From Candidatus Kaiserbacteria bacterium RIFCSPHIGHO2_01_FULL_53_31 (GTDB lineage: Bacteria; Patescibacteriota; Minisyncoccia; Phycocordibacterales; Phycocordibacteraceae), in NCBI GenBank assembly GCA_001781095.1, contig MFKU01000014.1:1-59528 (forward strand): a DNA stretch of 59,528 nt. The letters are read 5' to 3'. The notes beneath the pieces are model-generated. The model ran no database searches. It had not been told where the DNA came from and worked only from the letters and a program-made list of their open reading frames with translations. Position numbers and translations under genes: made by a program. This document shows positions 32,677 to 37,538 of this stretch, one piece after another; the stretch's first letter is position 1; every line of letters begins with the position of its first letter.

Positions 32677-33063
32677 ATGAACGACTGTATTTTCTGCAAA
32701 ATTGTGGCGGGTGAGATTCCTGCCGACAAGGTATATGAAGATGAGGACTTTCTTGCCTTCTTGGATATCCACCCCGCGTCATGTGGGCACACACTGATTA
32801 TTCCCAAAAAACACTATCGATGGGTATGGGACCTGCCTGCCGACAGGCAGGCGTCCCCGAACATTGGCGCCTACTTTGAAGTGGCTCAGAAGATCGCTCG
32901 CGCTCTGCAAAAAGCATTTGATCAAGAAGCAATTTGGAGCGGCATCAAGGGAGACGAGGTGCCGCACGCACATGTCTCTATCCTTCCTCATTCGAAGACG
33001 AAAGGAAATAAAAAAGATTTTGCCGGTAACGCAGCAAAAATCCGAGCAAATCTGGCTGCTTGA
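32677..33063 (+). CDS. HIT family nucleotide hydrolase
   Basis: CIFCKIV.GEIP, AFLDIHP, GHTLIIPKKH, VPHAHV. Confidence 0.92.
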   Translation: MNDCIFCKIVAGEIPADKVYEDEDFLAFLDIHPASCGHTLIIPKKHYRWVWDLPADRQASPNIGAYFEVAQKIARALQKAFDQEAIWSGIKGDEVPHAHVSILPHSKTKGNKKDFAGNAAKIRANLAA

Positions 33064-33087
33064 CAATAGACAACATTCGTGTATACT
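33060..33087 (+). promoter_or_regulatory. Sigma70-type promoter of the DGR target gene
   Basis: TTGACA (33060) - 16 bp - TATACT (33082); RBS AGGAGG at about 33240 before ATG 33251. Confidence 0.7.
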
Positions 33088-33250
33088 ATACAGATAGTTC
33101 TTTGATATCAACTTGCGTTCGCCACAGCAGAAAGTGGCTTTCCGTCAGCTGGCGGATCTAGGCCGTTCTCTGCTGTGGCGAACTCACTAACGAGAAGACC
33201 ACCAATACTGAGGCTACCCGCAAAGGAGTAGCGCTCAATAGGAGGAACCT

Positions 33251-33949
33251 ATGAGCAAAGCAACATTCGGACAGGCGCTTCAGGCGTTGAATCTGATTCA
33301 CGCAAAGGACCCGACTGCAGAACGCCTCACGGCGCTCTACAACTCCGGCATCCTCGCGGATGTGCTCGACGCAGACCTTTCGAAGGTCGAACGCGATGCT
33401 GTCCGTGCTGCGCTCAAGCTCGGAAGCATCTTCACTCGCAACGAGCACGGCCACGTTGTCGTGACCTTCACCGGTCTCGACATTACGGGTGCCGAGGAAA
33501 TCGCTCGGCTCGAAGCAGGCGGGTACCGCGTGGGCAACTACGCGAAGCAGTGCTTCACGAGCACGAACGACGACAGCTACGACAAGTGTCATCGTCTCGT
33601 CGCCGGTCAGCAGTATCGGATCGCCCTCGTCCCCGGAAAGGACATCGAGCGCGATTCCGAGCGGACAACCGCAGCCCTGCAGAAACTCGGCGAGAAGTGC
33701 GGCTATGGCAAGGCGCTCGGCGGACATATCCCGCGAATCCGAGAGATCATCTCGGACAAGCAGATGGAAGAAATGGGGATCTGGTACATCGCAGCCCTCC
33801 ATGACCCCATCAAGAATTCCGGCGGCGACCCGAGTGTGCTCGACGTCTACCGCTACGATGGCGAGCGATGGGTCAGCACCTATTGGGGCTCTCCCGACAG
33901 TCAGTGGGATGGCAGTGGCGCTTTCGCGTTTCCCGTTGCCGCAAGTTAG
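33251..33949 (+). CDS. DGR target (variable) protein, 232 aa, VR at C-terminus (probable C-type lectin-like fold)
   Basis: The last ~43 codons match the downstream TR except at adenines. The fold call is inferred from typical DGR targets. Confidence 0.9.
   Translation: MSKATFGQALQALNLIHAKDPTAERLTALYNSGILADVLDADLSKVERDAVRAALKLGSIFTRNEHGHVVVTFTGLDITGAEEIARLEAGGYRVGNYAKQCFTSTNDDSYDKCHRLVAGQQYRIALVPGKDIERDSERTTAALQKLGEKCGYGKALGGHIPRIREIISDKQMEEMGIWYIAALHDPIKNSGGDPSVLDVYRYDGERWVSTYWGSPDSQWDGSGAFAFPVAAS
33818..33944 (+). repeat. DGR variable repeat (VR)
   Basis: 127 bp, 119/127 identical to 34297-34423. Mismatches at 33827, 33834, 33842, 33848, 33891, 33908, 33912 and 33915 all face an A in TR. 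Confidence 0.95.
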
Positions 33950-34003
33950 CACTTAGGACTTGGAACCTTGGTCTTTTGGACTTAGGAACTTTGTTCTTCG
34001 TAT

Positions 34004-34039
34004 TTGGGCTCCGCTCGCTTCACTGCGCGCGGAGCCCAA
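34004..34039. other. Hairpin downstream of VR (candidate DGR homing hairpin or terminator)
   Basis: TTGGGCTCCGC / GCGGAGCCCAA 11-bp stem about 55 bp after the target stop. Confidence 0.65.
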
Positions 34040-34070
34040 TCTGTTTTGATACACTGCAAGTGGCAGTAGG

Positions 34071-34456
34071 TGCATACGCGGGAGATTACGGTTTCCCGCT
34101 ACCGAACCCAGTATCCATACATCCAGAATATTCGCGATTACGGTTTCGGGTACCGTGGTGTATGCAGACACTTCAAAAATTGAAGATACTTGGTGTGGAG
34201 TGCTCTGGCATTACAGATGCCGAAGACCGCGGGACCCCCGCAGACAGCCCCGAGAGTATTCAAGGGTGCAGTGATATGGACGGCACTCCACACATCTCCG
34301 GCGGCAACCCGAATGTGCTCAACGTCAACCGCTACGATGGCGAGCGATGGGTCAGCACCTATTGGGGCTATCCCGACAGTCAGTGGAATGACAATGGCGC
34401 TTTCGCGTTTCCCGTTGCCGCAACTCCCTTCACTTCTCGCCCCGCTATACGCGGGG
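34071..34456 (+). ncRNA. Putative DGR template RNA (structured leader + TR + 3' hairpin); ends approximate
   Basis: Multiple stems upstream of TR and a CCCCGC-TATAC-GCGGGG hairpin at 34440-34456. Confidence 0.55.
34297..34423 (+). repeat. DGR template repeat (TR)
   Basis: Adenine-retaining copy of VR (AAC/AAT codons) 479 bp downstream of it, with an A-free 3' segment GGCGCTTTCGCGTTTCCCGTTGCCGC. Confidence 0.95.
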
Positions 34457-34818
34457 TTGAGTTTTGCCTAGCTGCCCGTTCCAACCACCCAGCATTTTAC
34501 CGATTTCTTCAATCGGGACGGAGAGCGCAACGTATTTCTTCGTATCGAGTGATTTTGTCTCCCAGAGCACGAGTAACATCACCTTCAGGGTATCCAGTTT
34601 GCGAATGGCGAGCCGTACCCATGGCTGTTTTTCGGTTTTAGCGAGGAAAGTTGCAGAGGAGATCGCTTCTATCGTTTCTACAAAGAGCTCGTCTATCTTT
34701 CCGCCGAGAGTGTATCGATGTGTCTTGGGAATGGTCTGATAATATCCGTACCAAAGGATATATGCTGTCTTCAAACGCTCAAGCACGGGGAGAAGTCGTT
34801 GGGGGGGGGGTTACTCAT
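34445..34818 (-). CDS. avd: Avd-like four-helix-bundle accessory protein; ATG 34818 is out of frame by one base at the G10 tract, in-frame GTG at 34786
   Basis: IPKTHRYTLGGKID..LDTLKVMLLVLWETKSLDTKKY..EEIGKMLGGW matches the Avd/bAvd family pattern; located between TR and RT. Confidence 0.85.
34801..34810. repeat. G10 homopolymer shared by the 5' ends of avd (-) and RT (+)
   Basis: Exactly ten G at 34801-34810. Confidence 0.9.
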
Positions 34819-34856
34819 GGACGCTCGTATACGACGATATCATTTCGGTCGAGAAT

Positions 34857-35822
34857 TTGCTTGAAGCTTGGCGCGAGTTCAAACGAGACAAGCGCAAACG
34901 CGCTGATGTGCAGGAGTTTGGGAGAAACCTGATGAGCAATGTTCTCGACCTACATCGAGAACTTGCGACCGGTACGTACCAGCATGGTGGCTATCATCAT
35001 TTCAAGATAAGCGATCCAAAACCGCGTGATATCCACAAGGCGAGTGCGCGCGACCGGCTCGTACATCACTCGCTTCATCGAAAACTATATCCATTCTTCG
35101 ATCGCATCTTTATTGCTGACTCATATTCTTGTCGTATCGAGAAAGGAACGCACAAGGCGATGAATCGCTTTCGCGCATTCGCCTACAAAGTTTCGCAGAA
35201 CAACACACGCACCTGCTGGGTTCTCAAGTGCGACATTCGCAAATTCTTCGCGTCTATCGATCACGAAGCGCTCGTCCGTATCTTGCGTGCACATATTTCT
35301 GATGAGCGTCTGATGTTGCTTCTTGTAAATATTATCGGCAGTTTCAATTCAGACACTGTGGGGAGAGGTCTCCCGCTCGGGAATCTCACATCACAGTTAC
35401 TGGTAAACATTTACATGAACGAGTTTGATCAGTTCGTGAAGCATAAAATCAAAGCGAAGTATTACATCCGCTACGCTGATGATTTTGTGATTTTCTCCCA
35501 TGACCGAACTCATCTGGTAGAAATACTTCCATATATGGACGTATTTCTACGTTACCAGTTGAAACTTAAAATGCATCCGAACAAGGTTTCCATCGCAACC
35601 CTCTCTTCTGGCGTCGACTTTCTGGGCTGGGTCCATTTTCCCGATCGCCGCGTGCTACGTACGAGCACAAAGAAGCGAATGTTTAGAAACATACAAGAGA
35701 AGCAAGGGCACGAGGCAACAGTCCAGTCGTATCTCGGCCTGTTGAGTCATGGGAATGCTTGGAAACTTCAAGAAAGTGTAAAGTCCTTGCACGAGGTAGC
35801 GCTCGCGAAGCATTCGGTTTGA
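34857..35822 (+). CDS. DGR reverse transcriptase; RT-like sequence extends 5' of the TTG start, ATG 34762 joins in frame only with G11 or G8
   Basis: DPKPRDI, RDRLVHH, KGTH, CDIRKFFASIDH, GLPLGNLTSQ (DGR-type), YIRYADDF, VDFLGW. No maturase or endonuclease tail. Confidence 0.95.
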   Translation: MLEAWREFKRDKRKRADVQEFGRNLMSNVLDLHRELATGTYQHGGYHHFKISDPKPRDIHKASARDRLVHHSLHRKLYPFFDRIFIADSYSCRIEKGTHKAMNRFRAFAYKVSQNNTRTCWVLKCDIRKFFASIDHEALVRILRAHISDERLMLLLVNIIGSFNSDTVGRGLPLGNLTSQLLVNIYMNEFDQFVKHKIKAKYYIRYADDFVIFSHDRTHLVEILPYMDVFLRYQLKLKMHPNKVSIATLSSGVDFLGWVHFPDRRVLRTSTKKRMFRNIQEKQGHEATVQSYLGLLSHGNAWKLQESVKSLHEVALAKHSV

Positions 35823-35857
35823 CAGGGAAGGCATACCTAAAGTAGTATATTGGTATG
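35819..35857 (+). promoter_or_regulatory. TA promoter with operator-like inverted repeat
   Basis: TTGACA (35819) - 18 bp - TAGTAT (35843). The inverted repeat CATACC/GGTATG (35832/35852) overlaps the antitoxin ATG. Confidence 0.55.
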
Positions 35858-36130
35858 AATACGAAGACAACCATCACCATCAAAACCGACAAGAAGTTGC
35901 GTGACGCAGCGAAGCGCACGGCCATGAAATTGGGCATTCCACTCTCAACCGTGATGAATGCCCAACTTGCGCAATTCGTCTCCGAAGGGCGTTTTGAGGT
36001 GTCGCTCACTCCCCGTCCTGAAAGGGTACGAGCATGGGAACGCATAAGTGAAGAAATGGATCAACACCCGGAGCGCTATAAAGTGTTTACGAATGCCGAT
36101 GACTTGCTTGTTGATCTCGGTCTCGCATGA
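35855..36130 (+). CDS. RelB/DinJ-like ribbon-helix-helix antitoxin
   Basis: TTITIKTDKKLRDAAKRTAMKLGIPLSTVMN RHH pattern; ATGA overlap with the toxin. Confidence 0.8.
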   Translation: MNTKTTITIKTDKKLRDAAKRTAMKLGIPLSTVMNAQLAQFVSEGRFEVSLTPRPERVRAWERISEEMDQHPERYKVFTNADDLLVDLGLA

Positions 36131-36390
36131 TCATTGTCTACGCGTCCAGCTTTAAAAAGCAGATTCGCCACTTGCCTCCGGGGATCAAACGGGCACTGTC
36201 TGAACGATTGCGTCTGTTCGTGGACATGCCATACCACCCATTACTCGACAATCACGTATTGAAGGGAGATCGCCGCGGATACCGTAGCATCAATATCACC
36301 GGTGACTGGAGAGTTATCTATGAATATGTTGACGCAACAAACGTACGACTCATCGAAATAGGCACGCACCACGATCTGTACGGTACCTAG
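36127..36390 (+). CDS. RelE/YafQ family mRNA interferase toxin
   Basis: SSFKKQ, LDNHVLKG, RSINITGDWRVIY, IGTHHDLY. Confidence 0.88.
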   Translation: MIIVYASSFKKQIRHLPPGIKRALSERLRLFVDMPYHPLLDNHVLKGDRRGYRSINITGDWRVIYEYVDATNVRLIEIGTHHDLYGT

Positions 36391-37538
36391 CCGAGTGCTT
36401 CGATGCCGGGCAGGGTGCCGCCGTGCGCTAGGAATTCGAGCATGGCGCCACCGCCCGTAGACACGAAGGAGAATTGAGACAGGAGCCCGAGTTTCTCGAT
36501 CGAGGCGACCGTGTCGCCACCACCGATGGTGGAATCGGTGCTGGACGAAGCAACGGCGCGCGCGACCATATTCGTAGCATCAGCAAATCCATTTTCGTAA
36601 TTCCCAAGGGGACCGTTCCAGAGAATCGACTTCGCCCTGCGTATAAGCTCGCCGAGAAGGACCGTTGTTGCCGGCCCGACATCAAGAATAATCTCGTCGG
36701 AACGCACTTCCTCCACCAATGCAACACGAGCGTGTGAACGCGCGTCTGCGCTCGCGAGGGCGCTTTCCGGAACCACGAGAATGTCGATCGGCAGAACGAG
36801 TTTCGGGTTCGAGAGGAGTTCTTTAATTTGCGCTGAACCGCCGCTGCCGACGAGGGACTTCCCCACCACGTGTCCCGCCCCTTTGAGGAAATCGCTTGCA
36901 AGCGCGCCACCGACAAATACGCGGTCGTAGGTCGCGATGAGCGCGCGGAGCACTGGTTCCTTGGTAGAGAATTTAGCGCCGCCGATGATCGCAAGCGCGG
37001 GGTGCGTCGGTGTGCGTGCTCTCGTGAGCGCCGCGACTTCTTCTTCGAGGAGGATGCCGGCATACGAGGGAAGAATCTTTGGTAGACGGACGATAGATGC
37101 GTGCGTACGGTGGCAGGTATCGAAGGAATCTTCCACGAATACATCGCCGAGTGCAGCGAGCTCATGCGCAAACGTCACGTCGTTCATTACTTCCCCGCGG
37201 TTACGACGCAAGTTTTCAAGAACGAGCACTTTCCCCGGCATAAGATCGCGAACAGCCGCGCGCGTGGAAGCACCGATCGTTTCTGGAAAGAATGAGACAC
37301 CGGGCAATAATTTTCTAAGTGCATCTGCAACGGGCGCCAGTGTTTCTGTACCCTTCTGACCAAGGTGACTTATGAGTACGACGCGTGCACCGCGCTGAGT
37401 CAAATAGCGGATCGTCGGTATCGTACGACGCAAGCGATACTCGTCGGCGATGACGCAATGTTCCGTCGGCACGTTTAGCGTGGCGCGGACCAGTATGGGG
37501 ATATTCTCGAAGAGTCCGATGTCTCGAACGAAGCGCAT
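36387..37538 (-). CDS. pgk: Phosphoglycerate kinase
   Basis: ISHLG, LENLR, HRTHAS, GGAKFSTK, WNGPLG, GGGDT, STGGGA. Confidence 0.95.
   Translation of the reverse strand: MRFVRDIGLFENIPILVRATLNVPTEHCVIADEYRLRRTIPTIRYLTQRGARVVLISHLGQKGTETLAPVADALRKLLPGVSFFPETIGASTRAAVRDLMPGKVLVLENLRRNRGEVMNDVTFAHELAALGDVFVEDSFDTCHRTHASIVRLPKILPSYAGILLEEEVAALTRARTPTHPALAIIGGAKFSTKEPVLRALIATYDRVFVGGALASDFLKGAGHVVGKSLVGSGGSAQIKELLSNPKLVLPIDILVVPESALASADARSHARVALVEEVRSDEIILDVGPATTVLLGELIRRAKSILWNGPLGNYENGFADATNMVARAVASSSTDSTIGGGDTVASIEKLGLLSQFSFVSTGGGAMLEFLAHGGTLPGIEALG

Follow-up and report, generated by a model that had tools for sequence, protein, structure and literature searches.

A frameshifting simple repeat at the avd/reverse transcriptase junction as a candidate contingency switch of diversity-generating retroelements in Patescibacteria

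The stretch of DNA analysed here, hereafter the window, is the 59,528-nt contig MFKU01000014.1 of Candidatus Kaiserbacteria bacterium RIFCSPHIGHO2_01_FULL_53_31, and its subject of interest is a diversity-generating retroelement (DGR) in which the accessory gene avd and the reverse transcriptase (RT) gene overlap head to head across a run of ten G. On every sequence criterion examined, the region holds a complete DGR. The target gene, an open reading frame (ORF) of 232 aa without a Pfam family, lies on the plus strand at 33251-33949 and carries the variable region (VR) at its 3' end (33818-33944, plus strand). VR forms a 127-nt direct repeat with the template region (TR) at 34297-34423 on the same strand, is 94% identical to it and ends 5 nt before the target stop codon; there are 8 TR/VR mismatches, and all 8 are at TR adenines. 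The gene avd (accessory variability determinant) occupies 34445-34818 on the minus strand, where an ATG and two codons are followed by the tract, read on this strand as a C10 run of Pro codons, and then by the body of the protein, which is out of frame with the ATG at G10. Its product matches the Pfam family bAvd (PF22296; E 2e-11, 44.7 bits against a cut-off of 40). The RT gene on the plus strand (34762-35822) encodes an RVT_1 domain (Pfam, E 3e-25), and, with a tract of G10, its ATG at 34762 is not in frame with the RT body; its homologues are 60-76% identical and share the same locus layout.

The initial annotation of the window had proposed that a single G10 run is common to the two head-to-head genes, and both a reading of the sequence and a homopolymer scan place exactly ten G at 34801-34810. 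The run lies in the 5' coding sequences of avd and RT, occupying codons 3-6 of avd, and is proposed to act on both strands as a slipped-strand (contingency) tract. From the avd ATG at 34818 the minus strand reads MSNPPPNDFSPCLSV followed by a stop, and from the RT ATG at 34762 the plus strand reads MLSSNAQARGEVVGGGVTHGRSY..., leaves the RT frame and stops at 34932-34934, so that both upstream ATGs are indeed out of frame at G10 and terminate early, as had been stated. The RT frame itself is open from 34743 to 35822, after a TAA at 34740, and reads ...WGGGYSWTLVYDDIISVENLLEAW. In agreement with the earlier reading, its translation contains no ATG, GTG or TTG between that stop and the TTG at 34857, which falls within the conserved N-terminal motif YDDIISVENLLEAW. 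The body frame of avd is PPPQRLLPVLERLKTAY, also read as PPPQRLLPVLERLK; its first start is the GTG at 34786, which would yield a 113-aa product, and the only other nearby start is a TTG four codons further in. Frame calculation shows that the ATGs at 34818 and 34762 need the identical correction, one G more or equivalently two fewer, which upholds the claim that one added G mends avd and RT together. No other G/C run longer than 6 is found within the window. The tract is also the longest G/C run of the 667,081-base genome, in which the next longest are three runs of 8 and only 4 runs reach 7 or more.

To place the tract among relatives, 200 genomes of the same family were searched, of which 58 have RT homologues, and loci were taken from these genomes, from metagenomes (80 loci) and from a species-representative genome collection (80 loci); 15 loci of the first two sets and 4 of the third were excluded as lying near contig ends. 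The counts over 131, 108 and 192 loci given below hold some records twice (12 were found identical), while the counts over 154 loci and on the RT tree are of unique loci. All loci fetched have the same layout, avd and RT lying head to head on opposite strands. A G run of 6-14 stands at the junction in 110 of the 131 analysable loci from family genomes and metagenome contigs, with a mode of 9-10, and in 65 of the 76 analysable loci from the species-representative collection, whose titles name Kaiser-, Giovannoni-, Yanofsky-, Taylor-, Lipton-, Adler-, Komeili- and Brennerbacteria and Paceibacterota and include one single-cell genome. When the 200 nt before the conserved Tyr codon were scanned in loci with an RT at least 57% identical to the query, a simple repeat was found in 184 of 192 loci, a count in which one locus scored as repeat-less (L128) has a G9 missed through a tie-breaking artefact and the 'C' repeat scored in another (L180) is a 41-nt stretch of C close to a contig end, probably an artefact. 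Because this genome has only the 4 G/C runs mentioned above and the repeat recurs at one place in nearly all these loci, its placement is conserved beyond chance. On these counts the junction repeat is a conserved feature of the DGRs of these Patescibacteria and not an accident of one assembly.

The decisive observation, which suggests that the repeat is kept for its frameshifting property, is that other motifs stand in for poly-G at this junction. Most junction repeats are G7-G14. Among the 184 loci the repeat unit is 1 nt long in 169, 2 nt in 5, 4 nt in 8 and 7 nt in 2, and it is never 3 or 6 nt long. The loci without poly-G carry (TTCG)9, (CTGG)8-11, (TTGG)10, (TTGA)7, (GT)7-12, (GA)10 or one of two heptamers (6 and 11 copies). 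On an RT tree of 159 unique loci, from which loci with too little RT sequence were excluded, the repeat motif is replaced at least 17 times, and TTCG, TTGG, TTGA, CTGG, a heptamer and G9 all occur within a single tight clade. A requirement for a specific sequence, be it a Pro/Gly run or an RNA or DNA motif, was considered and fails to explain such turnover at one site; selection for a frameshifting, mutable repeat can explain it.

The initial annotation had suggested that a switch should show itself as a tract kept in homologous loci at lengths mixed between in-frame and other ones, and this is what the relatives show. Of the 154 unique loci, 51 have avd in frame with an upstream ATG (ON), and in the other 103 avd is out of frame (OFF). 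Along the tree there are 42 changes of state, as many as with shuffled labels (42.8 +/- 2.4), and the state thus carries no phylogenetic signal. When 107 loci were sorted by the frame of avd, 49 were one base too long, and the other two classes held 33 and 25. As a control, we compared loci of a repeat-less sister clade (RT 46-53% identical), and in 12 of 12 avd is intact with an in-frame ATG that lies 4-13 codons before the first helix. Since all of these sister loci are intact, the broken frames go with the repeat and not with uncertain annotation. One locus within this otherwise repeat-less clade (L053 of genome G108, RT 51% identical) has a G9 at its avd/RT junction, which may be an independent gain.

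The tract also differs in length between sequences that are otherwise the same, so that it changes faster than its surroundings. In three pairs of loci with identical flanks (656-800 of 656-800 bases) the lengths are G11 and G10 (L006/L074), G10 and G8 (L108/L109) and G9 and G10 (L131/L134); two clearly independent flank-identical pairs have equal lengths, and the remaining equal-length pairs are the same records in two collections. Close relatives differ as (GT)7 and (GT)10, and three CTGG loci have 11, 10 and 9 copies, among which only the 9-copy locus joins the conserved ATG to the avd body. For the strain of the window, assembled contigs at a depth of about 3-7x have G10 in runs X1 and X9 and G9 in run X8, the X8 contig being otherwise identical over 615 nt; no other alleles of this strain turned up when metagenome contigs were searched with its exact flanks. 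At the level of contigs, the VR of the X8 contig differs from that of the window at 10 positions, 9 of which are at TR adenines, and the contigs of X1, X9 and X10 break at the VR start. Neither MutS_V nor MutL families were found in this genome (94.9% complete) by a search that had hits in 11 of 14 control genomes; in bacteria known to be phase-variable, slippage is more frequent when mismatch repair is lacking. We also observed that assemblies tend to break or gap at the tract, as X8 contigs do at window positions 34785-34787 and as a Yanofskybacteria scaffold (L209) does with a stretch of N's, which would fit a mixture of tract lengths among the reads or mere sequencing difficulty.

Whether the tract lies inside or outside the translated part of avd can be judged from codon usage. 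The Leu-Leu-Pro codons at positions -3 to -1, which separate the tract from the possible internal start, show variation almost exclusively at their third positions, and the entropies of the three positions of the Pro codon are 0.26/0.15/1.62 (45 unique loci) and 0.55/0.21/1.99 (31 loci) at the two commonest spacings. The antisense avd ATG is held by the choice of codons in the RT frame, where His is CAT in 68 cases against CAC in 1 (CAT is 49% of His codons in the genome) and Ser is TCA in 22 of 22 (16% in the genome). The run itself is not created by codon preference, since CCC accounts for 21% of Pro and GGG for 16% of Gly codons in this genome. Moreover, 16 of 108 loci lack both an in-frame ATG and any internal avd start. 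By this pattern of constraint, avd is shown to be translated through the tract from the conserved upstream ATG. The initial annotation had also named a contrary outcome, in which homologues would lack the tract and start at downstream GTG or TTG codons; instead, the repeat is present in nearly all of them and the coding constraint runs through it. A second minus-strand ATG lies in another frame at window position 34842, where it is encoded by the conserved RT motif DIIS. In this window its frame reaches a stop before the tract. In some relatives (e.g. L005, L006 and L152) the equivalent ATG is in frame with avd, and two of the three length classes could there give Avd with different N-termini.

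For RT, two main types of locus can be told apart. In 53 of 108, this window included, there is no ATG, GTG or TTG from the tract to the conserved N-terminal motif, and RT must therefore start upstream and read the run as Gly codons; an upstream RT ATG is present in 50 of these 53 and is in frame in 12 of the 50. RT and avd need the same correction in 42 of these 50 loci, as they do in this one. In this window, an extended -10-like motif, TGATAATAT, lies on the plus strand at 34737-34745, 16 nt before ATG 34762, and is followed by a Shine-Dalgarno-like AAGGA at 34754-34758. TGATAATAT and AAGGA are a putative promoter and ribosome-binding site of RT. A TGnTA(A/G)TAT motif is found 16 nt before the RT ATG in 15 of 62 loci of this type, and TGATAATAT is also under constraint from the Y-Y-Q codons of avd; a two-hexamer promoter scan of 33900-35100 returned no site. 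In the second type, which accounts for 41 of the 108 loci, the tract is followed by an ATG of RT's own. That ATG stands 13 nt after the tract in 30 of 70 unique loci of this own-ATG type, and in 35 of the 70 the tract directly adjoins a TAnnnT hexamer, as compared with a background of 1.3% per position and with 7 of 81 loci of this window's type. This arrangement suggests that, in the own-ATG loci, the G run lies within the spacer of a leaderless RT promoter. The remaining 14 of 108 loci have only a GTG or TTG after the tract.

These two types bear on the idea, put forward in the initial annotation, that the tract switches genes on both strands. Coupling of the two reading frames stands for this window and for the 42 loci just mentioned; as a general description it does not, since about half of the loci have an own RT ATG after the tract. 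As far as the reading frames and motifs allow, avd is the universal and best-supported predicted target of the tract, and the two-strand idea would hold in both main RT types, by different routes.

We argue that the junction repeat is probably a slipped-strand contingency locus, through which Avd would be phase-variable and RT would be affected by way of the reading frame in this window and, probably, of promoter spacing elsewhere. According to this explanation, a hypermutable simple-sequence repeat, the G10 run, stands in the 5' coding sequence both of avd (minus strand) and of RT (plus strand), and slipped-strand mispairing at replication would change it one G at a time. Only lengths of 3n+2 (G8, G11) would join ATG 34818 and ATG 34762 to their protein bodies, and cells would alternate, randomly and reversibly, between making Avd and RT and making neither, or N-terminally truncated products only. 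Both proteins are required for DGR cDNA synthesis in the Bordetella phage DGR, and mutagenic retrohoming of VR would for this reason be phase-variable as well. In the own-ATG loci, one repeat would act on avd through its reading frame and on RT through the spacing of its promoter. A slippage-prone phase-variation switch, as first proposed for this locus, is in line with the conserved place of the repeat, its variable length and motif, the coding character of avd and the intact frames of the repeat-less sister loci. The slippage rate, the inactivity of the OFF alleles and the purpose of such a switch, to diversify or to freeze, are the parts of this explanation that we infer.

Taking the argument further, we lean, by a small measure, towards the view that the single repeat is a heritable and reversible two-strand master switch for DGR hypermutation in many Patescibacteria, that its mutability itself is selected, and that populations hedge in this way between diversifying and freezing the target protein. 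Selection on mutability itself is suggested because the motif has often been replaced while the position and the frameshifting property persist.

Several observations weigh against a phase-variable avd and RT. An ON fraction of about one third is also what is expected for a neutral, untranslated tract, and related loci are not independent, so that the counts overstate significance. An internal GTG or TTG stands at or near residue 1 of avd in 76 of 108 loci, including GTG 34786 here. The upstream ATG of RT is found at varying positions, and the codon test for it is modest (19 of 50 versus 6 of 40). The length difference within the window's strain comes from low-depth assembled contigs only, in which a homopolymer miscall in a single contig is possible. 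Finally, both alleles of this strain (G10 and G9) are OFF, yet VR differs between samples at TR-adenine positions, and it follows that either a minority ON subpopulation acts or truncated or recoded products suffice.

The first of these points would be accommodated if the tract were non-coding, with Avd made from GTG 34786, RT made from TTG 34857 or a non-canonical codon, and the length of the repeat tuning transcription as a promoter or 5'-untranslated element. The internal avd starts and the one-third ON fraction are as this explanation would have them, and the TAnnnT abutting the tract and the ATG 13 nt after it in the own-ATG loci (35 and 30 of 70) fit a promoter spacer. On the other hand, the avd-frame constraint extends upstream of the internal start, the upstream ATG is kept by codon choice, and 16 of 108 loci are without an alternative start. 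Repeats of 36-77 nt are too long for a -35/-10 spacer, and units of 3 or 6 are never found. A start at TTG 34857 would cut the conserved RT motif Y-D-D-I-I-S-V-E-N-L, and all the repeat-less sister loci start avd at an upstream ATG. We consider a non-coding tract unlikely.

Still less probable, in our judgement, is programmed recoding, in which RNA polymerase slippage or +1/-1 ribosomal slippage on the C/G run (CCC-C) would give low, constitutive amounts of Avd and RT and the length of the DNA tract would be largely irrelevant. It is well established that homopolymers cause slippage and that +1 shifts occur at CCC-N, and recoding would explain how VR could diversify despite out-of-frame consensus alleles and why the commonest state of avd, seen in 49 of 107 loci as compared with 33 and 25 for the others, is an excess of one base, which a +1 shift would correct. 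It leaves unexplained, however, the di-, tetra- and heptanucleotide repeats at the same site, of which the tetramers and heptamers would not be rescued by slippage, and the differences in DNA length between identical flanks; moreover, all three frame states are common.

That the tract is a sequencing or assembly error, the true one being in frame (G11 or G8) with no switch, was the mundane alternative of the initial annotation and is very improbable, for although long G runs are error-prone, the contigs are of low depth and the gap of N's in L209 falls right at the tract, G10 is found alike in independent contigs of two runs, which come from two studies, and a third run has G9, neither length being in frame, two thirds of the 154 loci, which stem from many assemblies, are out of frame, including tetramer and heptamer loci that are well resolved by short reads, one flank-identical pair differs by two bases, and 12 of 12 repeat-less loci are intact.

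A slipped-strand contingency locus, the explanation we prefer, would be of a known kind. Translational phase variation of this sort is exemplified by poly-G tracts in Campylobacter jejuni, Neisseria and Helicobacter and by tetranucleotide repeats in Haemophilus influenzae. The junction repeat resembles such loci in having 7-14 G/C or 2-, 4- or 7-nt repeats a few codons past an ATG, a unit that is never a multiple of 3, a mixture of ON and OFF states and different lengths between identical sequences, and MutS and MutL were not found here. It differs from them in that the hosts are ultra-small Patescibacteria and not host-adapted pathogens, that the switched gene is part of a mutagenesis machine and not a surface or restriction-modification gene, and that one tract serves two overlapping divergent genes, each of which reads it on its own strand. 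Control of two divergent genes by one repeat is known from the TA repeats in the overlapping hifA/hifB promoters of Haemophilus influenzae, and poly-G/C promoter spacers from porA and opc of Neisseria and fim of Bordetella. As at hifA/hifB, a single repeat in a compact divergent region would govern genes on both strands, and as in the promoter-spacer systems, the G run of the own-ATG loci seems to lie between -35-like and -10-like hexamers, a likeness that is one of motif statistics only. The difference from hifA/hifB is that avd would be switched through its reading frame, as would both genes in the present locus.

As compared with the DGR of Bordetella phage BPP-1 (mtd-avd-TR-brt, all on one strand), the present element shares an RVT_1 RT, a bAvd-family protein, an adenine-specific TR/VR pair and a VR at the 3' end of the target. 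It differs in that avd is antisense to RT and head to head with it, that TR, upstream of avd, has a hairpin directly behind it, that a structured RNA domain precedes TR, and that a frameshifting repeat stands at the avd/RT junction. There is also a likeness to phasevarions, in which methyltransferases are phase-variable, since a stochastic repeat switch would act on a master function, here the supply of variants of the target protein; repeat-mediated on/off switching of mismatch-repair genes likewise gives switchable mutators. In contrast to both, what would be switched here is the targeted hypermutation of one gene and not a regulon or the genome-wide mutation rate.

To our knowledge, little is known of how DGR mutagenesis is switched on and off. 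A full-text literature search, with supplements and the survey of DGRs in the candidate phyla radiation by Paul et al. 2017 (Nat Microbiol) outside its scope, found no link of DGRs with repeat-mediated or phase-variable control. In the available portions of their text, PMC5758913 and PMC8144416 class DGRs as active or inactive without naming a switch, and no such tract is mentioned in the corresponding portions of PMC5758913, PMC8144416, PMC12135933 and PMC5737381. Within the literature searched, therefore, a contingency locus is a known kind of switch, and a repeat switch on DGR accessory genes was not found in print.

If the explanation is true, tract length modulo 3 is a testable genetic marker of the DGR state in metagenomes, and the switch could explain why many DGRs appear inactive. 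Contingency loci, known mainly from host-adapted pathogens, would extend to ultra-small episymbiotic bacteria with few regulators. The locus would be unusual in that two overlapping genes on opposite strands read one and the same repeat, and one hypermutation mechanism would gate another. We would also like to point out that avd and RT in these lineages will often be called truncated or frameshifted in annotation, and they should not be dismissed as pseudogenes.

Apart from the tract, a second conserved element of the locus is a structured RNA domain on the plus strand at 34078-34195, which lies after the target gene and before TR and is accompanied by a -10-like box near 34044-34056. It is 75-87% identical at the nucleotide level in more than 100 related loci, which exceeds the conservation of the DGR proteins. 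RNAalifold gives 5 helices with 36 pairs, 20 of which have compensatory changes; 96.3% of cells are paired, versus 38-45% in slid controls, and there are 121 compensatory cells, versus 32 in shuffles and 8-35 in slid controls. Folded alone, the 176-nt element is unexceptional (z = -1.27), the structure being evident only through covariation. It matches no Rfam family and no tRNA, and tRNA and Rfam searches of 33000-36500 and 33900-34900 gave no match. The domain is probably the 5' part of the DGR template RNA. Directly after TR, a consensus scan shows a GC-rich hairpin with a T-rich tail on the plus strand (34439-34457), which overlaps the avd stop and is a possible terminator of the TR RNA and/or of avd. 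The domain and the hairpin right after TR together suggest that the template RNA is built of a 5' structured domain, then TR, then a terminator. This order is unlike that of the Bordetella DGR RNA, in which a functional spacer lies 3' of TR.

Poly-G runs of the family do not seem to be confined to DGRs. Of the 142 family genomes in which no RT was matched, about 57 nonetheless carry a run of G9 or longer, some of these at contig ends, so that the link between poly-G and DGRs is not a clean one and the idea that poly-G is exclusive to DGRs in this family is not supported. The three other longest G/C runs of the present genome, each of 8, were also considered as switches and rejected, as they lie within open frames or in a repeat and are not switch-like. 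In one relative (G002, contigs C9 and C5; L229-L232), further G10-G13 runs are found in a repeated intergenic element, TTTACC ... G(n) TACGCT, which resembles a -35/spacer/-10 layout, and one run of this genome is at the 5' end of a 327-aa ORF beginning ...PPPEGEV. The genus may hold further repeat-controlled loci besides the DGR.

Directly downstream of RT on the plus strand lies a pair of small overlapping genes, 35855-36130 and 36127-36390. The first has no Pfam match, and the second matches toxin families of the YafQ/ParE/HigB type (E 9e-10). The pair is probably a type II toxin-antitoxin module adjoining the DGR.

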